DNA of 64,000 nucleotides. Source: Narcine bancroftii (lineage: Eukaryota). Of this stretch, positions 1,167 through 62,936 are shown piece after piece. How positions within the stretch are numbered: the first letter of the stretch is position 1; each line of letters opens with the position of its first letter. Location: NCBI RefSeq assembly GCF_036971445.1, contig NC_091475.1, positions 5,518,001-5,582,000 of the forward strand, given 5' to 3'. The notes under the pieces are model-generated. The model saw only the letters and a list, made by a program, of their open reading frames with translations. It was not told the origin of the DNA and ran no database searches. The position numbers and the translations under genes are program-made.

Positions 1167-1720
1167 TTATTTATTTCCAGTAGGACAGACACAAGAAAGA
1201 AACACATCTATTTGATTCTTTACAATAATGGTGTGGGGGTGCAGTTCATGAGGTAGGTAATGGGCTAAGGTCATCTCCCAGGCATCCACAAATGCCACAT
1301 TGATGCCTGTGAACATTTTTCTCATCACTACATCATGCTGGTACGAGAACCAGTCACTGTTGTAGAGACTGACTTCTCCTGGATGGGCCTGGACATTAGC
1401 CGTCTTCATTACAACCACGGTATCTGGATTCCTGCCCAACAGCTGTGAAATGGATCTCCGTATGTTCTGTAACCTCCGGATATACACTTCTACGGGGAAA
1501 GTGCTGAAGTGCGACCATAAGGTGATGCCTATAACTGTGTCTTTTCCTCCTTTAATTCCATCCAGTTCATTTGAAATGTACCGCAGGTCCTGGCTTGATA
1601 GGGCGTTGAATCGGATTGGTGGTCCATGAGCACGATATTCCACAATTATGTTATTTACTGTGTCAACAGCAAGGTGAGGACCGATCTTCTCAAAGTTGCC
1701 AAGATCTAATTTCTTGAGAC
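1167..1720 (-). CDS. NXPE3: NXPE family member 3, last coding exon (554 nt incl. TAA)
   Basis: Acceptor tgttttag at 1721-1728. Translation GLKKLDLG...HGPPIRF...WSHFSTFPVEVYIRRL...DAWEMTLAHYLPHELHP...FLSCVCP matches the NXPE3 C-terminus. Phase 1 is consistent with the upstream exon. Confidence 0.95.
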
Positions 1721-1769
1721 CTAAAACAGAAACAGTAACATGCTTTGACGTGGCAGTGATCTTGCTGAC

Positions 1770-2050
1770 ATGAAAACATAAGAAATAGGAGCAGGAGCTG
1801 GCTATCCAGCTCATCGAGCTTGCTCCACCAACTCATGGGCTCATCTCCTCCTACCTGTCTTTTTTTTTTCCTCCCATAATCCTCTAATTTGCCTACTTTG
1901 TAAAAAAAAAATCTATCCAACCTTGTCATAAATATATTTACTGAGGTGACCTCCACTGCTTCAATGGGCAGAAAGTTCCACAGATTCACCACCCTCTGAG
2001 GAAAGCAGTTCTTCCTCATCTCCGTCCTAAATCTACAACCCTGGCCAGTC
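1770..2050 (-). mobile_element. CR1-clade LINE 3' fragment
   Basis: ORF 1690-2019 begins RKNCFPQRVVNLWNFLP..AVE, the typical CR1 ORF2 C-terminus. Confidence 0.7.
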
Positions 2051-2682: not shown

Positions 2683-3482
2683 TAAATCTTTGAGGTTGGG
2701 GTTGAGAAGTAGAGGCAAGCTGTGGTGATTAGAAATGCTAATGGGCTTGGTACAACTTGGTTACATTAAATCAGTCACCATAAAATAAATGTTAGTTTCC
2801 TCTCCAGCTGAGTATTTTGTTGTTTTTAATTTTGCTATGAGCCTGGTTGTTGAACATGAAGGCCATGGATCGTTGGTCAGTGACTAGGGTGAATCGTCTA
2901 TCTGCTAGATAATGCCACCAGTGTCTAATAGCTTCGACAATTGCCTGAGTCTCATTCTCAACTGAGGAATGTCGTATTTCAGGGCCATGCAGGGTGCAGG
3001 AGTAGAAGGCTTGATTTAAGGAAGCAGCCAGGGCAAAATCTGAGGTGTTGCTTTCCACTTGGAATGGCTTAGATTCGTTGAATGGAGGCTCTGACAATGT
3101 CTTGCTTGATATTACTGAAAGCAGCAAGCGCTTGTTCTGAGAGGGGGAAAGAGAGCATTTTGATAAGAGGTTGTGCTTTGTCAGCGTAGTGAGGTACTCA
3201 CTGGGCATAGTATGAGAAAAATCCTAGACATCTTCCAAGGGCTGAGTTGTAGGGACTGGTAGTTCCACGAGAGGGAGCATCAGGTCATGATTTGGGCTGG
3301 TCGCACCATTTTCGACCACATAGCGCAGGATGGACAATTTAGTTGCACAAAAAATGCACTTTTGTTCATTGTATGTGAGGTTTAGGTTCTGGGCAACTTT
3401 GAGAAATTTCTCAAGATTAGCATTATGGTCCTGTAAGTTGTGACTGCATATTGTGACATTATCTAAGTGGGGATAGGTGGTT

Positions 3483-4447
3483 CTTTCTTTGGCTTGGCTT
3501 CGCGGACGAAGATTTATGGAGGGGGTAAAAAGTCCACGTCAGCTGCAGGCTCGTTTGTGGCTGACCAGTCCGATGCGGGACAGGCAGACACGATTGCAGC
3601 GGTTGCAAGGGAAAATTGGTTGGTTGGGGTTGGGTGTTGGGTTTTTCCTCCTTTGCCTTTTGTCAGTGAGGTGGGCTCTGCGGTCTTCTTCAAAGGAGGC
3701 TGCTGCCCGCCAAACTGTGAGGCGCCAAGATGCACGGTTTGAGGCGTTATCAGCCCACTGGCGGTGGTCAATGTGGCAGGCACCAAGAGATTTCTTTAGG
3801 CAGTCCTTGTACCTTTTCTTTGGTGCACCTCTGTCACGGTGGCCAGTGGAGAGCTCGCCATATAATACGATCTTGGGAAGGCGATGGTCCTCCATTCTGG
3901 AGACGTGACCCATCCAGCGCAGCTGGATCTTCAGCAGCGTGGACTCGATGCTGTCGACCTCTGCCATCTCGAGTACCTCGACGTTAGGGGTGTGAGCGCT
4001 CCAATGGATGTTGAGGATGGAGCGGAGACAACACTGGTGGAAGCGTTCTAGGAGCCGTAGGTGGTGCCGGTAGAGGACCCATGATTCGGAGCCGAACAGG
4101 AGTGTGGGTATGACAACGGCTCTGTATACGCTTATCTTTGTGAGGTTTTTCAGTTGGTTGTTTTTCCAGACTCTTTTGTGTAGTCTTCCAAAGGCGCTAT
4201 TTGCCTTGGCGAGTCTGTTGTCTATCTCATTGTCGATCCTTGCATCTGATGAAATGGTGCAGCCGAGATAGGTAAACTGGTTGACCGTTTTGAGTTTTGT
4301 GTGCCCGATGGAGATGTGGGGGGGCTGGTAGTCATGGTGGGGAGCTGGCTGATGGAGGACCTCAGTTTTCTTCAGGCTGACTTCCAGGCCAAACATTTTG
4401 GCAGTTTCCGCAAAGCAGGACGTCAAGCGCTGAAGAGCTGGCTCTGA
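3483..4447 (-). mobile_element. RTE-clade LINE, 5'-truncated, open reading frame to the C-terminal zinc finger
   Basis: Uninterrupted ORF 3539-4426 with GLEVSLKKTEV, FTYLG, RLAKANSAFGRL, QLRWMGHVSRM and CNRCNRVCLSRIGLVSHKRAC. 3' tail AAGCCAAAGAAAGAA. Candidate TSD GTGGTT at 3477-3482 and 4448-4453. Confidence 0.92.
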
Positions 4448-5941
4448 GTGGTTAGGTTATTGTCATCCACCATGTGGTCCATCTCTCTCTGGAATACAGG
4501 GACTCCGATAGTGACCCCAAAAGGGACACGGAGAAACTGATGCAGCCTATCATCAGCTTTGAAAGCCGTATAAATACGGTCACTGTCATGAATGGGCAGC
4601 TGGTGATAGGCAGATTTCAGGTCTATGTTGGAGAAAGCCTTGTCGTGGGCTATTTTGTTCATCATGTCATTTATTCTTGGTAAGGGATAAGCATCCAATT
4701 GAATGAATTTGTCAGTAGTTTGACTATTATCGACAACCATCTGATTCTTTGTCCCTTGTTTTACTACTACGCCTTGACCATGCCAGGGGCTGATGCTGGG
4801 TTCAATAACACCTTCCTGCAGTCGTCGTTGTACTTCTGATTTGATGAATGACCTGTCAGCAGTAGAGTAGCGCCAGCTCTTGGTTGCTGTGGGTCTGCAA
4901 TCGGGTCTGAGGTTGGTGAATAGTCGCGACAGGGACATCTCAGCATCGAGAGGCTGCAGGAGGGTTGTCTGTTGACCAGAGGCGGGTGGGGTCCATTGTA
5001 AGCTAGGGTTATGCATTCATGCTGGCACTGGAAATCCAGCCCTAAGAGCACAGGGGCAAAGAGATTGGGTAGGACGAGCAAACGTAGATCTTTATATTCA
5101 GTGCCCTTGATCGACAGGTCGGCAAGACAGTAGCCATGTACCTCTGCAGTGTGGGATCTAGAGGCTAAGCGAATTTTACGGTCAGTGTTTTCCTCTTCGA
5201 GAGCGCAGAAGGCAGCCACACGAGGCTGGATAAAACTCTCGGTCGAACAGGCAGTTCATAGGGTGTCCATTTACTTCTATATTCAGCATGAAACGGGTTA
5301 AATCATGGCTATCTGCCTGATTTAGCTCCAGTGAGGCCAGTGTTGTCAGAGTAGCATCATCCTATTCTTCATGTTGTTCGTCTCCAGGGGGCGCTGTCCA
5401 GCTTGGCTAGCACAAAGCATTGTGAGCTGGCAGGAGATTTTTGAGCTAAGCAGGCAGTTTCCGCTCTTCCCCAGAGATAAGAGCAGCAGTTTCGGTAGTC
5501 CTTTCAGAGAGCCCGCTGTAGACCTTTCCGTAGTGACCCCTCTTGCTGCATTTAACATGCACAGGCAGATTAGCTCGTCCACAGAGTAGCATTTCAGCTG
5601 ATTTCATGGAGACACAGCCACGATGGCCAATGGCCGAGACTTGAGTGTCTGGCTATTCGGGTGGTTCAGCGGACTATTGAGTAGGGGCATGTGGGCATGA
5701 CTCAGCAGCCGGTTCAGGCGAGTAGATATCCCCCCCCCTTCTAAATGCAAGGTCCAGTGACTCGGCGATTCTTATAACTTGATTTAAATCCCGCTCACCT
5801 GTCTCTAGCAGCCACTGTCTCACATAGTTTGATTTCATTCCAGAGACCAACGAGTTCAGGACCAGTAATATCAACAAATTCTTTTGCAGTCTCCACTCTC
5901 CTTAAGCACACTCTCGCCAGGTCACGAAGGGTCAGGATAAA

Positions 5942-6065: not shown

Positions 6066-6874
6066 GGTCAGGATAAAGTCACTGATCCATCCCCCGGCTG
6101 CTGCTTGTGTGTAGCCAGTAAGTGTTTGGCAAGCACTTCATTCCGCTGGCCCACATATTTTGAGCAGCAATAGCAGCCAAATAAGTCTCTTTGTCTCTTA
6201 TCAGAACTTAGGCCTTGCTGCCCATCTGGGACAGAAGTAGGAGTAGCTTCTGCTCATCATCCACTATCCCAGCCACATTTAGAAATGCTTCCGGGACCCG
6301 CAGCCAATGCTCAAAGAGAGTCGCAGCCTCCGGGGCTTGTGGGTCGAGCTCGAGCCCGAACAGTTTCATAATTTACTCCATCCTTACCAGAGGTCGAGGT
6401 TTGGGCGCAGGCCTCTGTCCCGGCGGTGCGGGAGGCTGCACTGGCTGTGGGGCTTGAAAATGCGACGGTGCTGCAGCCTCCAGCGGAGTTAGAGGTTGTT
6501 GAAACCCCGGTCAGTTAGCCCATGCTCCTCTGACTGCTCCATTGTCTTCATCCCCCGACTCCTATTTTTGGATCGGCACTGCTTTTGAAGTCATCTCAAA
6601 CAAACTTTGCTAATAAAATTAAACCGCAGTCAATAACTCATGAGACAGGAGTTTTGCGAATAACATAGGCTCTTATTAGCAAGAACATGGCAGTGTTGGC
6701 CACCTATGAGGCTAGTCCCAATCTGAGCTGAGAGCAGTGGACAGGACATTTATGTGCAAGCAAGGTGGCTACTTCCCCCTAGTCAGTGTATAGCGCCGGT
6801 CGTCCATACAAGTTAGCAGCGAGCAAATACATTCTTCATACAAGCATACAATACCAAGGATCACATCAGTGTCC

Positions 6875-13442: not shown

Positions 13443-14149
13443 CTGAAAATGAAACACAGTGTTCCTTAAATCACTGCCAATGTAATAAAAATTAAATATT
13501 CCAAGAGTATTTTCACAAGCCCAAGTCAACTTACTCAAATTAAGCTCATGCTTTATATATCTAAACATTACCCTAAACGTAGCCACAGAGGTACTGATGG
13601 GAAGGAGTTTCCGCAGATGGCCTGTGGAAATGAACTGCTGGGAATCATGTTTGTTTATTTCAGGAAGCTATCAGCTCAACAGATTCTGTGTCAATGGGAA
13701 GGCTCCTTGTTGGGCAGACGAGTGTGATACAGAAAGTGGTGGAGAGATCACAGGGAAGGGGATGGAAAGTCCAAAGCTGGTAGTTTGAGAAACAAGCTTT
13801 GATGGGCCTGGAGGGATCCTTTCTGCTAGGCTTAATCATAAAGGACCCATCACCACCTCTTCCCTTTAAGAAAGAAAGTACAGAAGCCTGAAGCCCAGCA
13901 CCTCCAAGTTCAAGAACAAATTTTAAAAGAACTTTCTCTTACTATTCTGGTCAGGATCTGGGATCACAAAAAAGACCTGTCTGGTCTATTGAAGCACTGT
14001 TCTTTTTCTTGCACAATGAATATTTATCTATCGATCCTTTATATTAAACACTTTCTGTACTGGGGTAATTTATTGTTGTTGGTGTATCTTATCTACCCAT
14101 TTGAATTTCAGTGCAAATGTACATTGCACCTGTGTACAATGCAATAAAC

Positions 14150-15630
14150 TTGTTATCATCGTTCCATCATTCATTCACTCCATCATTATCATCTTCCTCC
14201 TCGTTCCATCATCCTCTTTGTTCCATCATTCACCGTTCCATCATCGTCGCTCCATTATCATCATCGTTCCATCATTCACCATTCCATCATCATCATCGCT
14301 CCATCATCATTCCATCATTCACCGCTCCATTATCATCATCGTTCCATCATTCACCGCTCCATTATCATCATCGTTCCATCATTCACCGCTCCATTATCAT
14401 CATCATTCCATCATTCACCGCTCCATTATCATCATTGCTCCATTATCATCATCGTTCCATCATTCACTGCTCCATTATCATCATCGCTCCATTATCATCA
14501 TCGTTCCATCATTCATCGCTCCATTATCATCATCGTTCCATCATTCATCGCTCCATTATCATCATCGTTCCATCATTCACCGCTCCATTATCATCATCGT
14601 TCCATCATTCACCGCTCCATTATCATCATCGTTCCATCATTCACCGCTCTATTATCATCATCGTTCCATCATTCACTGCTCCATTATCATCATCGCTCCA
14701 TTATCATCATCGTTCCATCATTCACTGCTCCATTATCATCATCGCTCCATTATCATCATCGTTCCATCATTCACCGCTCCATGATCATCATCGTTCCATC
14801 ATTCACTGCTCCATTATCATCATCGCTCCATTATCATCATCATCGTTCCATCATTCACTGCTCCATTATCATCATCGCTCCATTATCATCATCGTTCCAT
14901 CATTCACTGCTCCATTATCATCATCGCTCCATTATCATCATCGTTCCATCATTCACCGCTCCATTATCATCATCGTTCCATCATTCACCGCTCTATTATC
15001 ATCATCGTTCCATCATTCACTGCTCCATTATCATCATCGCTCCATTATCATCATCGTTCCATCATTCACTGCTCCATTATCATCATCGCTCCATTATCAT
15101 CATCGTTCCATCATTCACCGCTCCATGATCATCATCGTTCCATCATTCACTGCTCCATTGTCATCATCGCTCCATTATCATCATCATCGTTCCATCATTC
15201 ACTGCTCCATTATCATCATCGCTCCATTATCATCATCGTTCCATCATTCACTGCTCCATTATCATCATCGCTCAATTATCATCATCATTCCATCATTCAC
15301 CGCTCCATGATCATCATCGTTCCATCATTCACTGCTCCATGATCATCATCGCTCCATTATCATCATCGTTCCATCATTCATCGCTCCATTATCATCATCG
15401 TTCCATCATTCATTCACTCCATCATTATCATCGCTCCAGCATTCATTGCTCCATCATTCATCGCTCCATTATCATCGTTCCATCATTCATTCACTCCATC
15501 ATTATCATCTTCCTCCTCGTTCCATCATCCTCTTTGTTCCATCGTTCACCGTTCCATCATTATCATCGTTCCATCATTCATTCGCTCCATTATTCGTCAT
15601 CATCATTGCTTCATCATCTTTATCATCACT
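14150..15630. repeat. Composite minisatellite; 32-bp unit CCATTATCATCATCGTT+CCATCATTCACYGCT with extra 17-mers
   Basis: Directly visible tandem array of about 1.5 kb. The ORF track shows a 32-aa period, equal to three 32-nt units. Confidence 0.97.
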
Positions 15631-15716
15631 GGGAGGTTTGTCCCAATATTTGATCCTACCAGAACTTAGCCCAGGATATGAATGGAGATGAAATATGAAT
15701 AAAAGTGATGACAAAC

Positions 15717-19127: not shown

Positions 19128-19961
19128 TGAAGTGCCAGTTGATGAAGTAGACAAAGATGATGGGGTCAAACAATAATCAGGGCTTTTATTAGCCGAAACT
19201 CATGGTATAATAATGAAAGACAACAGATGCATATACAGTTATATCCAAGGGGAGTGTCCTTAACAGTAGAGATAATACACGGCCAATGTTAGTACAGCAA
19301 GGCTCGCCAGAGGGGAGACAGGCAGCTTGGCAGACATTCACCACAGTCTCCCCCCGGCAGAAGAAGGGTTAAAATCAAAAGGACAACTGCTAGGAAAGAC
19401 TGAAGCAAGCGATACATGGATACCATGTTTGGCCTTGAGATAATCTAACAGCCAAAATACGCCAGTATCTAGCAAGCAATTGAAATATAATGAGATGTTT
19501 TATGAATATGTCAGCCTATCAGGTTGTTTACGAATTCTGGTGCTTTGTCTCAAAACAGGTGGCTCCTTTGCAACCTTGGGAACTGGTACAGGTCCTGGGT
19601 CAGTCGTGTGGGAAGGACGGACTTCCGGACCCGCTCCAGAATTGCCAGCGTGAGGCAGTGGAGCCTCAGCATGGCCATCTGAAGGCTGACTAGGGGTCAC
19701 AGGCTGGAGGGGGGGGGGGGGGGGGGGGGCCTTTTATTCTGCTAATAAAATTGAAGGGCCAGTTGATGAAGTAGACAAAGACGATGTGGTCAGACAATAA
19801 TCATGGCTTTTATTAGCAGAAACTCATGGTACAATATTTCTGGTGCATACACAGTTATGCCCAAGGGGAGTGTCCTTAACAGTAGATAAAATGCACGGCC
19901 AATGTTAGTACAGCAAGGCTCGCCAGAGGGGGGACAGGCAGCTTGGCGGACGTTCACCACT
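19128..19961 (-). mobile_element. Internally deleted Gypsy element: LTRs 19128-19345 and 19752-19961, 5-bp TSD GGAGC
   Basis: Two similar LTRs of about 215 bp. GGAGC at 19123-19127 and 19962-19966. Polypurine tract next to 19346. Pol C-terminus PVLRQSTRIRKQPDRLTY. Confidence 0.92.
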
Positions 19962-52099: not shown

Positions 52100-52870
52100 C
52101 AATCATTTTAGCCAAAGAACTCATTTACAGCATCTGGTGTACCCTCTCTATGGCCTTCCCTACATCGGAGAGACTGGTTGCAGATTAGGAGATCACCCAG
52201 CACCTCCTCTCCATCTGAAACAAAAGTGACCTCCCGAAGCCAACCATTTCAATTCGGAGTCACACTATCAAGCTCATGGCCTTACATACTATCACACCAT
52301 GACCACCTGCAGGTTGGAGGAACAACACTTCATTTTTCGTCTGGGCACACTCCAACCTGAGGGCATGAACACCAAATTCACTCCATTCCACTAATCAACT
52401 TGCTTGTTCCACCTCCCCCCCCCCTTTAACTAGTTATTCCAGTTCCTACTTCCTTTTTCTCTACCTAGCTTCAACCTTCCCCCCACCAGTGTTTCTCCCC
52501 CACTCTCCACGTATCATCTCCCACTTTAACCCCCCCCACCTCTCCTCCCACCTTCACCACCCCCCCACGGGGTTTTACCCCCCTCCACCTATCTTCTCCC
52601 ACCCTCACACCCCTCTCCCACCCTCACCCCCCCTGTGGGGTTTCTCACACACCCCCCTCACCTCTCCTCCCACCCTCACCGACCCCCACCTCACCTCCCA
52701 CCCTCGCCACCCCCCCACACCTCACATCTCCCTCCCTCACCAACGGGGGGTTTGTTCAAGCATCTCTCATGTTCCCCCACACCTTGATGAAGGGCTCCAG
52801 CCAGAAACGTTGGTTCTGCGACATCAAGGCCCTCTTTGACCTGCCGAGTTTCTCCATTATTTGTGTGTGG
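52100..52870 (+). mobile_element. Penelope-like element 3' remnant (GIY-YIG, C-rich tract, hammerhead-like tail)
   Basis: Motifs LPYIGETGCRLGDH and LGTLQPEGMNT. CTTGATGAAGGGCTCCAGCCAGAAACGTT at 52783-52811. Confidence 0.75.
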
Positions 52871-53123
52871 GGCTTCCCCCCCCCCTCCACTCCCCACCCA
52901 CTTCACCACAAGGGTCAACAGAATCCTTTTCCCTCCTTCGTCGCTCCCCTCACTTCAGGGGAATTGAATGGTGGACAACTCCAACACCCAGGCTGCAATG
53001 GCCACTGCACCCTGACCGAGGGCCGCCGTGTAAAACCACAAACTTTAAGATTCCCCACGGACACGGAACGCGCTCCTGGGTTTTTTTCCCCCCTTGTCAA
53101 ACGTTTGCAAAACGCACGCTTAC

Positions 53124-53175
53124 TCTCTGTCGCTTGCGCCGTCCTCCTGGCCGCTGCCGCCACCGCCGCCGCCAT
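53124..53175 (-). CDS. CEP97: CEP97 exon 1 (52 nt coding)
   Basis: GTGATGG start gives MAAAVAAAARRTAQATE. A|GTAAGC donor in phase 1 matches exon 2. CpG-rich context. Confidence 0.88.
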
Positions 53176-53715
53176 CACTCGCCCACTTCCGCTTGGCAGG
53201 ACGCCGAGCCACCGATGGTCAAAATCGAAAAGAAAACCCGGGTTTTTTTTCACGGGGGGGGAAAAAGATGTGGGTTTTTCAGCCGGGTTTATCTGGGGAG
53301 ATCTAATTTTCTGAGGAGAATTCGTTTTCGAGTTTGTGCAGCTACCCACAATTCCCTCTCTTACCCACAATTCCCTCCCCCTTCCCCTCACTCACCCATA
53401 ATTCCCTTCCCCTCTCTCACCCGCAATTCCCCCTCTCTCACCGCAATTCCCTCTCTTACCCACAATTCCCTCTCCCTCCCCCCTCTCTTACCCACAATTC
53501 CCTCTCCCTCCCCCCTCTCTTACCCACAATTCCCTCTCCCTCCCCCCTCTCTTACCCACAATTCCCTCTCCCTCCCCCCTCTCTTACCCACAATTCCCTC
53601 TCCCCCCCCCCTCTCTTACCCACAATTCCCTCTGTTACCCACAATCCCATTCACCTCTCTTACCCACAATTCCCTCTCCCCTCCCCCTCTTTGCGCTGCC
53701 ATTTTGACCGTCGAC
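53176..53715. promoter_or_regulatory. Bidirectional CEP97/RPL24 promoter with ETS site, TCT/5'TOP initiator and YY1 site
   Basis: CACTTCCG at about 53184. CTCTTT pyrimidine initiator at 53687-53692. GCCATTTT (YY1) at 53698-53705. The two ATGs diverge about 540 bp apart. Confidence 0.8.
53343..53690. repeat. Pyrimidine-rich minisatellite, about 32-bp unit TACCCACAATTCCCTCTCCCTCCCCCCTCTCT
   Basis: About a dozen full or partial tandem units are visible. Confidence 0.95.
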
Positions 53716-53720
53716 ATGAA
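53716..53720 (+). CDS. RPL24: RPL24 exon 1 coding part (ATGAA)
   Basis: ATGAA|GTGAGT follows a 5'TOP and joins exon 2 to give MKVELC. Confidence 0.93.
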
Positions 53721-53849
53721 GTGAGTGTTCCGCCAAGTTTTAATCTGCTTCCATCGACCGATTTAGCTTCGAAAGTGACTGCGACTTCAGTCACCTCTTG
53801 GTATCGATGAGTACGAAAAACGATGGGCACGTTGTATTTGTTTCCCCAG

Positions 53850-56732: not shown

Positions 56733-57628
56733 GTGAGTAGGGTGGGTCATGACACGTTAGGCTGGATGCCTAGCTGGGGCTTTAACTGAAAAAGGTTGGA
56801 AACATTGGTAGAGGGATTAGGGAGAAAAATATAATTAGAGACAAGTTTGAATTGTTGTAAGTGTGAGTGTAATGTGAAGTAGATGGAAGTGAATAAAATG
56901 AGTAAATGAGTTTTTAAAAAGAAACACAAAAAAAACTATTGGAAGAACTCAACAGTTTGAGTAGCATCTGTGGAGGGCAAGAGACATTGTTGATGCCTTA
57001 GAAATAAGACCTGCAACAGAACTCGTTCCTTTTCCCCACCACACCTCTGCTGTCATGAGATACTGCTTGAAACACAGTTCATCCAGTTTTTTGGTCCAGA
57101 TTCCAGCAACTGTGTTTTCTTGTCTCCATAAATAAAGGCCATGATTGGAAAGATGTTTTACATTACCCAAGGATTGTTGCAGCTTACAGTCATTAACGCA
57201 GTCCCCCTTGATCCCAATGTTAGGGAGGGAGGGAGCTAGAAAATTACGGTTTTCATTAACACAAATCCAAGTCATTTGAAAATGCATTTATGTGGGGATG
57301 GGGGAGTAAGTAAGTCAACCATGTTTCTCAAGCTTGTTTCTCATTTTACTTTTCTCCCACATAAATGTGATTTTTTTTTTTGGTCTCAATTTTTGGGTAA
57401 TTTGTGTAAATTAGGATAAATTTCCATAAACTAAACCACTGTAAGCTGGGGTTCCCTGTATAGGAAAGGAAATGTTCGTTAAAATAAATGATAACCCACA
57501 AAATAGAATTACAAACAATGATAATTTTGAGATGATTTACTGAATGGATGAAATAGTGCATGACATTGAACACAGCTGAGAGCTAAAGGACTGCAGACCT
57601 TGTGGATATCTGGAATCAAGGATGGGCC

Positions 57629-60600
57629 TGTGATAGTACAGATTCTATCACCAATGTGTATCTGTACAGATGGTAGTGTAGGATGACTGTGATTGGCTGA
57701 GAGTGTAGGCACACCTACTGGCAAGTCTTAAAGGATTGCTCCTAGCCAGACCAGATCATTCTGGACTGGTCGACCTACTTGTGATATGCTCAGTCTTTTA
57801 GTTAATAAAAGTCTTGGTTTGGATCAACAAGTCATTGGTTCTTTCGACGCGCACTACAATTTTATTAATTAAAAAATTTTGAAGGGATGGAGCGTATGCA
57901 ATGGCTGGAACACCTCGACATTGACCCACAGTCAGCTACAACCTCAAATGACTTTAAGCACTGGGTAAGATGCTTCGAAACATACTTGAAGCTCTCTGAT
58001 CCTGCCATGATAGAGGACATCCATCGACTACTAATATTGATGACTATGGTGTCCCCGAGAGTCTACCAGTGTCCAGGATGTGACCACTTACGCCGCTGCC
58101 ATGAAGGTGCTGAAAGGGCTCTACGAGCGACCGGTGAACAGGGTCTATGCTCGGTACAAACTTGCTTCTAGGAGGCAACAGCCCAGTGAGTCCTTAGAGC
58201 TTATATTCAGACACTAAGGGCAATGGGCAGGGACTGTGCACAGACAGAACTGCTGCGGTGACCACAGACAATCTGATTCAGGATGCCTATGTGGCCGGGG
58301 TTCGATCGAATGAGGTGAGGCAGCGCCTGCTAGAGCATGGGGGAGAAAACCTAAAGGATGTGATCCAGATCGCAGAGACGATGGAGGCTGTGGCCTTAAG
58401 TATGGACATGTACTTTCGGGGCTGGACCCCACACTCTGATGTAAGTAGGATGCCCTCCCTCTACCCTACTACTGCCGCTACGTTCCCCGAGGCAACCCCA
58501 AAGTGTTATTTATGCGGGAGGAACAAGCACAGCAGGTCCCAGTGCCCGGCGAGAAAAACCAGGTGGCAGAAGTGCCTTAAAAACGGCCACTTTGCTGTAG
58601 TCTATCACTCCAAAATGGCCACCGTCAAACACAATGCCTCATGTGAAGCCCCAACTGACCAGGGACCCGCCGCCGCTGACCGCCCCACCACCGACGGCAA
58701 TCAACGACCCCCAACACCGACCGTTGGCTGCAGGCAACAACACCAACTCCCCAACACTTTTTTCAGGCCCAACTGTTTGCGTGATGTCCCCATTACAAGT
58801 ATCTGCATCAATAACCCTCGACCAGGACTTCTCTCCCAACCCTTCCAAAAGCAATCGAACTGATTAAAGTGCATGGACACTATACCAATTGCTTATTTGA
58901 CTTGCTCAACTGACAGTTTTATCCGCCCAGACCCGGCCCACCGTTGCGGACTGGCTATTCTCCCCACTGCACATAGAATTTCATTGGCAACCAGATCGCA
59001 CTCGACTGGGATAAAGGGGTACTGCGTGGCAACCCTGAAAGTCCAGGGCATCACGTTCACAGACTTCAAACTATTAGTCCTTCCCCAATTGTGCACCCCT
59101 ACTCTGCTGGGACTGGATTTTCAGTGCCAGTTTCAAACCATTTCCCAATACTTTGAAGGGCCTCACGCTCCACTCTCCGTCTAACCATTCCACCCCAGAC
59201 CCTCCTGCCAGCAGCAGCCCGAGCCGCCCACCCCTGGGGCCTCACCTGTAGTCTCTCCACCCTCCGAGTTGCTCCGCTAGCGCCTGTGGCCATCAAAAGC
59301 CGGCAATATAGTTATGAACACAGGAAATTTATCACAAGTGAGGTGCGCAGACTGCTGGATGAGGGCATTATTGAACCTAGCTTGAGTCCATGGAGGGGCC
59401 AGGTGGTAGTTGTTAAAAACTGGGAAGCCGCGGATGGTGGTTGACTACAGCCAGACAAACAACCGTTTCAAACTCCTGGATTTGTACCCCCTCTCACGGA
59501 TGTGGTGAATCAGATCACCCAATATCGTGTATTTTCCACCATCGACATGTTCGGCCTATCATCAGCTCCCAATCCGCCGAGAAGACTGGCCTTTCACGGC
59601 CTCCGAAGCGAATGGGTGACTGTATCAATTCCTCAGGGTACCCTTTGGGGTCACAAATGGTGTCGTCTTCCAGCAGGAAATGGACCGGATGGTGGACCAT
59701 AACGGGGTGACTGCTACTTTCCTGTATCTGGACAATGTCACCATCTGTGACCATGACACGGAGGATCATGATGCCAACCTTGAGAAATTTTTTCAGGCTG
59801 CAACTTGGCTGAACTTGACCTACAATTGAGAAATGTGTCTTCCGGACCACTTGGCTCGCAATTCTAGGCTGTGTGGTGGAGAACGGGGTGGTCATGCCAG
59901 ACCCTGACCGCATGCGTCCCCTCATGGGCTTGACACCCCCCCCCCACACACACACACACACCCAGAAGGCACTCAGACGCTGCCTGGGATTTTTCTCTTA
60001 CTATGCCCAATGGGTTCCACACTATGCCGACAAGGCATGGCCACTCATCAAGACCACCACCTTCCCCCTGTCAACCGAAGCCAGAGCATGAAATCTGACC
60101 TCGCTGCTGCACGCCATCGACGAGACCATTCCATTCCAAGTCGAATGCGATTTGTCTTATTTTGCACTGGCAGCCATTTTGAACCAGGCCAGCCGGCTGG
60201 TCGGTAGCCTTCTCCAGAACCGAACCCTCCGGGTCCTGAGAGCCGACACTTCTGTCGAGAAGGAGGCCCAGGCCATAGTCGAAGCAGTACGTCGTTGGAG
60301 ACACTACCTCACTGGCAGGCACTCTACGCTGCTGACCGACCAACGCGCGGTCTCCTTCATGTTTAGCAATACCCAGCTAGGTAAGATCAAGAATGACAAA
60401 ATCGCCAGGTGGAGTATTGAGGTCTCCGCCTTTAATTATGACATACTGTATTGGCCAGGTAAACTCAATGACCTGCCAGATGCGCTCTCCAGGGGGACTT
60501 GTGCCAACATACAACTGGACAGGCTGCAGGAACTCCACGAGGAGCTCTGTCATCCAGGGGTCACTAGGTTCGCACACTTTGTCAAAGTTCGCAACCTGCC

Positions 60601-61861
60601 CTACACGGTCAAGGAGATTCGCTCCATGACCCGAGCCTGCACTGAGTGCAAGCCCCACTTCTTTTGTCCGGAGAACACCCACGTCATCAAAGCCACCCGC
60701 CCCTTTGAGCGTCTCAGCGTAGACTTCAAGGGGCCCCTACCGTCGACCAACCGTAAACACCTACATCCTTACAGCCATCGACAAGTACTCCCGTACAGCT
60801 TCCCGTTCGCTGTGTCTGCTCGGACATGACTGCCTCCTCAGTTATAGAGGCCCTGCACAGCATCTTCGCCATCTTCGGGTACCCCAGTTACATCCACAGT
60901 GACAGGGGTCCTTGTTTATGAGCGCAGAGCTGCGGCAGTACCTTCTGGAGCGTGGGATTGCTTCAAGCAGGACCACCAGCTATAACTCACGCGGTAATGG
61001 GCAAGTCATAAGAGAGAATGCCACCGTCTGGAAAGCGGTTACACTTGCCCTCTGGTCCAAAGGTCTCCCCACCTCTCAATGGCAGGATGTGCTCACTAGT
61101 GCCTTAAACTCCATCTGCTCTCTCCTATGCACCGCGACCAATGCCACCCCCCATGAAAGGATGTTCTCTTTCCTGAGAAAATCCAAGTCGGGTACGACCA
61201 TACCGGCATGGTTCACGGTTCCCAGTCCAGTCCTCTTAGAACGCCACATCTGGTACTCGAAGAATGACCCCTTGCTTGACCGCGTGACTCTGCTCCATGC
61301 GAGCCTGCATTATGCCTACATTGAGTACCCGGATGGACGGGAGGACACAGTCTTGGTAAAGCACCTAGCCCAAGCCGGATCAGGTGCAGCAGTGCCTTTA
61401 ATCCAACCTCCCCCTATTCCTTCTCCCCCAGGTCATTTGCTTGAACAGAGGGACCAGCACCACCCCACCAGCTCAGGCCAGACTGTCGACAACGCCGTTA
61501 GGGAATTGAGCGAAGTAGTGGCCGCACCTTACTGGCCTGGCGGCGACCCCAATCCCGGCACCACGCCGGATGGTCAGGCCTTCTGACCCCTAACCTCCTT
61601 CCACCCTGGGGTCGGTTCTCAAAGGGGTGAATGTGATAGTACAGATTCTATCACCAATGTGGATATGTATGGATTGTCGTGTAGAATGACTGTGATTGGC
61701 TGAGAGCATAGCCACACCCACTGGCAGGTCTTAAAGGATTGTTCCTACCAGACCAGGTCATTCTGGACTGGTCGACCTACTTGTGATATGCTCCAATCTT
61801 TTAGGTAATAAAAGCCTTGGTTTGGATCAACAAGTCTTTGGTTCTTTCGACGTGCACTACA
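57629..61861 (+). mobile_element. Full-length but degraded Gypsy LTR retrotransposon in RPL24 intron 4; LTRs 57629-57858 and 61632-61861; TSD GGGCC
   Basis: 230-bp TG..CA LTRs, about 91% identical by hand count. GGGCC at 57624-57628 and 61862-61866. Gag with Zn knuckle CYLCGRNKHSRSQC, protease remnant, RT YLDNVTI, RNase H, integrase SVDFKGPLP and TTSYNSRGNGQV. PPT AAAAGGGGTGAA. Confidence 0.97.
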
Positions 61862-62936
61862 GGGCCTGAAACCTATAAATGTTATTGAAATTGCATTTGT
61901 GTGGAATGATTTGGGCCAAAATAATCTGTTGCTGAGGTAAATGCTCTACATATAATAAAGGCGGCTAACCTTTCATTCGGAATTCTGAAAACTGGCAATT
62001 TATACAAAAACTGGGAATTTTTTTCAGTAGATGACATCAAAAATGAAGCTTGGCACCAAACATGACCCAATGCGACCCCAGCTCAACTCCCATGTATCCC
62101 GTCATGTTCCACTATTTATAATCACCTCCGAATCGTCTATACTTGTGCTTTCAGTTGGCACAGCACCTCAATGGCTGTTGTCGCTACTTATACTCCCCCA
62201 TGCAGTTGAAACTCAGCGCAGGGGAACCAAGAAGAGGGCCATTCTGGTGTTGGTACAGCGGTGTGGGGGAGGGAGCGAGGAGAGAAAGGGACGGCAGCAC
62301 GACTTGTTTGGGTGAGGGGAGAGGCAGCAGTGCAATTCGGGCGGGCGAGGGGGAGAGGTGCGGCAGTGTGACTTGGTCTGGCAATGGAGGAAGACGGCAC
62401 TGCGACTCGGGCGGATGAGGAAGACAGCAGCACGACTCAGGTGGGCGAGGAAGGGGGAGAGAGAGAGGTGGTAGTGCAACTTAGGTGGGCAAGGGGTATG
62501 GATGCGACAGCGTGACTCGGGTGGGCTTAAAGGGACTGAAATCAAGATGATTCCGAACATCGGCAGGTGTCCGGTCCTGACAATCCTGGATAAAAGATTA
62601 GGCACCTGTGGTAAGTTTTGGTAGCATTCTGATTATTGCCGAGTAGAAAAACGAGACTCTGGTAAAAAGAGAAGCAAGTCTTCAAAATGGATATTACTGG
62701 AAAGGTGTCAGTAAATTAAAGCAAGAGAAAATTATTACATTTGCTTGAAATCTAAATTCAGCGATAGAAAATTATCATCGGATCAAGCAGCATCTATGAA
62801 AAATGCTAGACTGTTGATGTTTTTAATTAATTGCCTTTGTTTAGAAACAAAGAGTATGGGAGGAAAGAAGAAATGTCCTTGATTGGCAGGAATTAGGAGA
62901 TATTAAAGAAGCTATGTGCCTTTTTTCCTTGTTTAG

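Follow-up and report, generated by a model that had tools for sequence, protein, structure and literature searches.

Comparison across 27 families indicates that a clade of Ty3/gypsy retrotransposons from animals, without a chromodomain, probably primes reverse transcription with RNA derived from its own long terminal repeat (LTR), as Tf1 does. In these elements the primer-binding site (PBS) position directly behind the 5' LTR is complementary to a short segment, or arm, of the LTR itself. A first-pass annotation had proposed priming without a tRNA; that proposal is well supported by comparison, because pairing with the element's own LTR occurs at the exact position, changes are compensatory, TGG is absent and TGG-bearing control elements do not self-pair.

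A Ty3/gypsy element with a PBS complementary to its own LTR

The window, the whole 64-kb stretch of DNA that we analyzed, contains a decayed, LTR-bounded Ty3/gypsy element at 57629-61861, on the forward strand and flanked by a 5-bp target-site duplication (TSD), GGGCC (57624-57628 and 61862-61866). Its 5' LTR (57629-57858, TG...CA) and 3' LTR (61632-61861), 230 bp each, are 90.9% identical. Between them lie what was formerly one open reading frame (57887-61590), recognized by translation, Pfam and comparison with intact relatives and now carrying many stops and frameshifts, and a polypurine tract (PPT, 61621-61631). The element has the features that define Ty3/gypsy elements (Metaviridae), namely TG..CA LTRs, a TSD, a PPT and, by Pfam, the order gag-PR-RT-RH-IN, and among solved structures in the PDB the best match of its reverse transcriptase (RT) is Ty3 (E 1e-56). 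The translation contains both motifs named in the first-pass annotation, YLDNVTI in RT (about 59725-59745) and KIKNDKI.RW in RNase H (about 60383-60412), the latter reading KIKNDKIARW. Contigs matched to the element, from four runs of one study that we guess to be RNA, indicate a high-copy family with numerous insertion flanks, and they mark the LTR edges: 26 and 17 contigs have varied flanks ahead of 57629, and 6 contigs have them past 57859. The copy in the window is decayed and inactive.

As had been claimed, no TGG follows the 5' LTR. Behind a lone unpaired A at the junction (57859), the PBS position (57860-57874) is the reverse complement of the LTR arm (57796-57810), the predicted self-primer, at 14 of 15 positions (93%), and the remaining position is a G-U pair; beyond one mismatch, pairing reaches 57792. 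The AATAAA signal said to overlap the pairing segment lies within the arm (57804-57809), and the 3' LTR arm differs from the 5' arm by one base. In a mononucleotide shuffle test of the LTR, the duplex score was reached in 0 of 200 cases. Taken alone, the window copy is nonetheless modest evidence for pairing, because the duplex is A-U at every pair but one (all 14 Watson-Crick [WC] pairs), is weak (-9.3 kcal/mol) and lies in a region, 57757-57900, that folds no better than its shuffles (z -0.09). The duplex is absent from the minimum free energy structure of that region, and 12 bp of it appear in the centroid structure.

Two further elements in the window, both on the reverse strand, share the design, as the first-pass annotation had also reported. 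Element B, of the same lineage as the 57629 element, was located by tblastx, self-BLAST and arm scoring; its 5' LTR and PBS portion (6605-6868) comprises an LTR at about 6868-6620 (start approximate), an arm at 6671-6682 and a PBS at 6605-6618, followed by a decayed, interrupted pol down to about 2800. Self-BLAST and tblastx within the window found no 3' LTR for element B. A fragment at 3480-4456 (reverse strand), LINE-like by its sequence, is inserted in its RT just before YLDN. Element C (19128-19961; self-BLAST and arm scoring) is a small, non-coding, TRIM-like element of 834 bp with TSD GCTCC. It consists of a 5' LTR (19961-19752), an arm (19808-19821) paired at 14/14 WC positions with the PBS (19750-19737), a PPT (19355-19346) and a 3' LTR (19345-19128) whose arm has a one-base difference, and it was likely mobilized by the self-pairing clade.

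Elsewhere in the window, a 221-aa open frame at 1167-1832 (reverse strand) has the appearance of a host coding exon, and long ORFs at 14020-15650 and 52370-53810 are spurious because these intervals are minisatellite arrays with periods of about 32 nt. Rfam and ARAGORN returned nothing in the 64-kb window.

The arm-PBS duplex is conserved and covaries across families

We gathered 91 loci of the lineage, of which 49 could be scored and 42 could not (gag start or 90 nt upstream missing). No LTR boundary was available in four of the 49: L015 is deleted, L016 is interrupted, L082 is a circular contig and L035 shows no matching arm in the available sequence. L017 has a 3-nt deletion in the PBS. The remaining 44 of 49 loci contain the arm-PBS duplex, where the script chose the best-pairing junction among candidate CA-AT junctions and three loci that it had mis-picked were assigned manually, L023 and L076 through the 3' LTR and L032 with a 1-nt bulge. 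For many loci, alignment of the 5' and 3' LTRs independently sets the identical boundary.

In the 27 families, each taken by one representative, A is invariant at PBS position 1, positions 2-14 are WC-paired in 24-27 families per column, and pairing falls off at positions 15-16; in all 27 the duplex ends one base short of the LTR end. Pairing is specific to the cognate LTR. Over PBS positions 2-14, own-LTR pairing averages 12.5 of 13, compared with 9.2 when LTRs are swapped, and a score of at least 12/13 was obtained for 23/27 cognate pairs versus 14/702 swapped pairs. The cognate LTR was the best or tied for best in 25 families, the other two being L032, which had been mis-picked, and L076, in which the 5' LTR is truncated. 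All 27 PBS 13-mers are distinct, and none of the 27 families has TGG in the PBS. By contrast, in 15 of 15 control Gypsy elements with LTR pairs, TGG lies no more than 4 nt from the LTR, and self-pairing, although scored more generously, does not exceed 9.5/13. In one locus (L048:130-270), the PBS-bearing LTR junction is tandemly duplicated, giving two PBS copies and one arm.

The first-pass annotation had named PBS/LTR covariation as a check on the pairing, and the families provide it. Twelve disjoint family pairs (seven sister or near-sister on the tree and five arbitrary, including two window elements absent from the tree) differ at 46 positions, of which 40 are double changes to a new WC pair, four are one-sided and two are without pairing. 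L020, a young copy that differs from its siblings by about 1% and has 19 private substitutions over 3680 columns, has a single arm change in both LTRs together with the exact matching PBS change, as primer copying would give. In L011, on the other side, both LTRs share an arm change that the PBS has not followed, and in one family five of seven copies retain an uncorrected mismatch at position 15 of the PBS. Read post hoc, these two exceptions are compatible with a two-generation model in which 13-14 nt are copied. The duplex is a real, clade-wide feature. Covariation shows that it is needed; covariation alone does not show what its job is.

The elements belong to a lineage without chromodomains

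Among the protein matches listed, the nearest to the lineage come from Narcine bancroftii (78-79%), with other rays and sharks at 64-70% and cnidarians (including corals), Trichuris and Seison at 52-57%; named hosts of relatives thus comprise rays, sharks, corals, a nematode and a rotifer. These matches point to a ray as the probable host of the window element. IMG/VR contained no relatives of the lineage. Intact relatives have a single ORF of about 1200 aa, and LTRs in the lineage are short (about 120-300 bp). A double CCHC-like array is present in Gag in 52 of 57 proteins, and the RT catalytic motif, where found, is YxDN in 74 of 95 proteins and YxDD in 21. We take the single ORF, short LTRs and CCHC arrays to be similar to those of Mag/SURL or Cigr-1.

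The absence of a chromodomain, noted in the first-pass annotation from one sequence, holds for the lineage: 0 of 20 intact relatives matched the chromodomain (PF00385) or SH3_Tf2-1, and precomputed domains contain no PF00385 among the 120 protein matches listed. Two chromodomain matches were examined, and neither has an RT beside it. In a quick maximum-likelihood tree of RT-RH, 24 lineage loci and four lineage proteins fall on one side of a long branch (length 1.88, SH-aLRT 100) from 16 unlabelled Gypsy controls of the same records, a unity that is partly built in, as the lineage was collected by similarity. RT-RH identity is 46-94% inside the lineage and 18-35% to the controls. Several bacterial MAG records (L081-L122; G001-G004 and others) carry abundant intact eukaryotic LTR retrotransposons, with 100 and 145 RNase H matches in two of them, and therefore contain host DNA.

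The Ty3 D214N substitution retains polymerase activity and abolishes transposition (PMC5371799). YxDN RTs also occur in lineage families with near-identical LTRs, although the equivalent change is lethal to Ty3 transposition.

A proposed self-priming reaction

By analogy with Tf1, we propose that the transcript would start at or upstream of the arm, and that the arm would fold back on the PBS 23-65 nt downstream. The RNase H of RT would cleave at the arm 3' end, at a conserved AAA/RCC junction (AAA is followed by R in 26, C in 24 and C in 24 of 27 families), and would thereby release a 3'-OH at one base's distance from the LTR end. Synthesis of minus-strand strong-stop DNA would then run across U5 and a short R, which extends from the arm end to the poly(A) site, before the jump to the 3' end; plus-strand synthesis would write the primer back into the PBS. 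With the primer copied into the PBS, arm changes would pass to the PBS and so give rise to covariation. The duplex occupies the position where the primer 3' end must sit, and another primer site is absent. In Tf1, the PBS pairs with the first 11 nt of the transcript, and cleavage by RNase H falls between nucleotides 11 and 12 (PMC7175516); about half of the cDNA keeps a copy of the PBS at its 3' end (PMC11042837). Not every element inherits its primer: Ty1 does not, according to the title of a reference cited in PMC5371799.

Where transcription begins determines whether the primer would be terminal or internal, and the sequences contain hints of both. TATA-like words, candidate promoters by pattern match, occur 83 nt before the arm end in the 57629 element (57727-57732) and at the identical offset in element B, and L060 has TATA at -74 and an initiator (Inr) at -46. 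In 7 of 25 families (L012, L023, L028, L045, L065, L076 and L088), the LTR has splice-acceptor-like tracts (a pyrimidine run and YAG) upstream of the arm, compared with 2.6 +/- 1.5 in shuffles, a mild excess reached in 6 of 500 shuffles under a rule set post hoc. These tracts may mark an LTR intron or a trans-splicing site, which would place the start upstream of the arm. Together, TATA, Inr and acceptor tracts hint at an RNA start 30-40 nt before the arm in some families, and the primer would therefore be internal, unlike that of Tf1. At -13/-14, however, pyrimidines end abruptly and pairing decays, and both hint instead at a start at the arm itself. Folding predictions permit both start positions in 23 of 25 families: predicted pairing probability is at least 0.76 in all 25 for RNAs beginning 14 or 20 nt ahead of the arm end, and with a start 45 nt before it, pairing drops to 0.0 in the window copy and 0.15 in L086 and is kept in the other 23. 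Across 28 families, no promoter word keeps a constant distance to the arm. The arm AG was considered as a splice acceptor and rejected, with A at -10 in only 18/27 families and pairing extending 5' of the AG. Words that we presume to be YY1-like lie 20-55 nt before the arm end in L060, L081, L002, L043 and element B of the window, directly after an Inr-like word in L060 and L081.

Other explanations for the duplex

The duplex could instead be a regulatory hairpin that hides the poly(A) signal of the 5' LTR, or gates gag translation, in an element using some other, unseen primer, an explanation that we regard as unlikely. Masking of the signal had been raised in the first-pass annotation. In 16 of 28 families the arm includes AATAAA (10) or ATTAAA (6), and near-variants end most other arms. 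The gag ATG follows the LTR end by 16-56 nt in loci with an intact leader, and promoter-like words may place the start upstream of the arm. However, 12 of 28 arms are without a canonical hexamer, and in L002, L003 and L043 the canonical hexamer lies downstream and unmasked while pairing is still 13/13, so masking is not the reason for which the duplex is conserved. Masking would also be indifferent to the register, which is constant at one base from the LTR end in 27/27 families. The duplex fills the sole place where a primer can bind, and under masking it would take two independent mutations to produce the double change in L020. Where the hexamer overlaps the arm, masking in the 5' LTR may come as an additional advantage, at most secondary.

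Self-priming might also use the 3' copy of the arm, on the same RNA or on a second one packaged with it, in transcripts whose start lies downstream of the 5' arm. The arm is present in both LTRs, and DNA comparison cannot separate the copies; moreover, the arm end is near the expected poly(A) region. We nevertheless consider this improbable, as the short loop of 23-65 nt favors local fold-back, the precedent of Tf1 is a 5' copy, and L011, a single case, better fits a primer from the parent's 5' LTR. An external RNA primer, such as a half-tRNA (known to prime copia-type elements; PMC6317226) or another small RNA, with an incidental match in the LTR, is very improbable: it accounts for neither the match to the LTR nor the compensatory changes, and the 27 distinct PBS 13-mers are each matched by their own LTR. 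Priming by RNA from the element's own 5' LTR is the most probable explanation.

Comparison with known systems

Self-priming is currently regarded as characteristic of Tf1/sushi-type chromoviruses and of a small number of plant lineages. Its presence in a widespread animal clade without chromodomains would mean either that it originated more than once or that it is ancestral, and is thus relevant to the proposal that hairpins served as the ancestral primers, before tRNAs did (PMC3601003). Self-primed elements would presumably escape control exerted through tRNA supply or tRNA fragments, and annotation tools that require a PBS would tend to miss them. The clade also offers dozens of natural primer variants for the recognition of an RNA duplex by RT and RNase H. 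As a tentative and rather doubtful extension, the animal clade may be large and ancient and may have evolved tRNA-free priming independently of Tf1/sushi, with an internal primer, in place of the first bases of the RNA, that is cut from R next to the poly(A) signal, rewritten into the PBS each generation and used by a natural YxDN RT.

In the openly accessible papers searched, we found no report of self-priming for the lineage or for the animals that carry it. PMC6238403 defines clades from sequence, and the lineage may correspond to one of them; the main text of that paper does not contain the term "PBS", and the motifs searched are absent from its readable supplements. Searching by motif yielded no name for the clade in the available text of papers including PMC6238403, PMC8220671 and PMC2774666. 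Unusual PBSs have been described elsewhere: an unknown form of priming was suggested for Skipper of Dictyostelium (PMC5006619), and PBSs are missing in bivalve TRIMs (PMC6934838).

Among animal elements, the lineage shares its metazoan hosts with non-chromoviruses such as Mag A/B/C, CsRn1, Gmr1, Cigr-1, Tor2, MolGy1-16 and LGF. The co-occurring Gypsy controls, which we take from domain order and PBS to be Gmr1-, CsRn1- and Mag-like, differ from it in that all have TGG, in addition to their low RT-RH identity.

Self-priming has been named for Tf1 and Tf2 of Schizosaccharomyces pombe, Tj1 of S. japonicus and the Tf1/sushi group (PMC4600332, PMC5341516). The lineage resembles this group in its Ty3/gypsy domain order, in the lack of a tRNA PBS and in a PBS complementary to its own LTR (PMC4600332, PMC7175516). 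It differs in having no chromodomain or SH3_Tf2-1 match in the intact relatives, an RT that is mostly YxDN, a Gag with a double CCHC-like array, short LTRs and an arm that overlaps or abuts the poly(A) signal, and its duplex is 13-15 bp or longer, compared with 11 in Tf1. By the chromodomain criterion the lineage falls outside Tf1/sushi; our tree sets it against the unlabelled Gypsy controls alone. Self-priming has also been predicted, from sequence alone, for plant Tcn1 chromoviruses and TAR (Houba/Osr-1) copia elements (PMC6317226). Those predictions are of the same type as ours, and the trait is thus present in more than one lineage; however, Tcn1 and TAR are plant elements of other clades or another superfamily, whereas the clade described here consists of metazoan gypsy elements without chromodomains.
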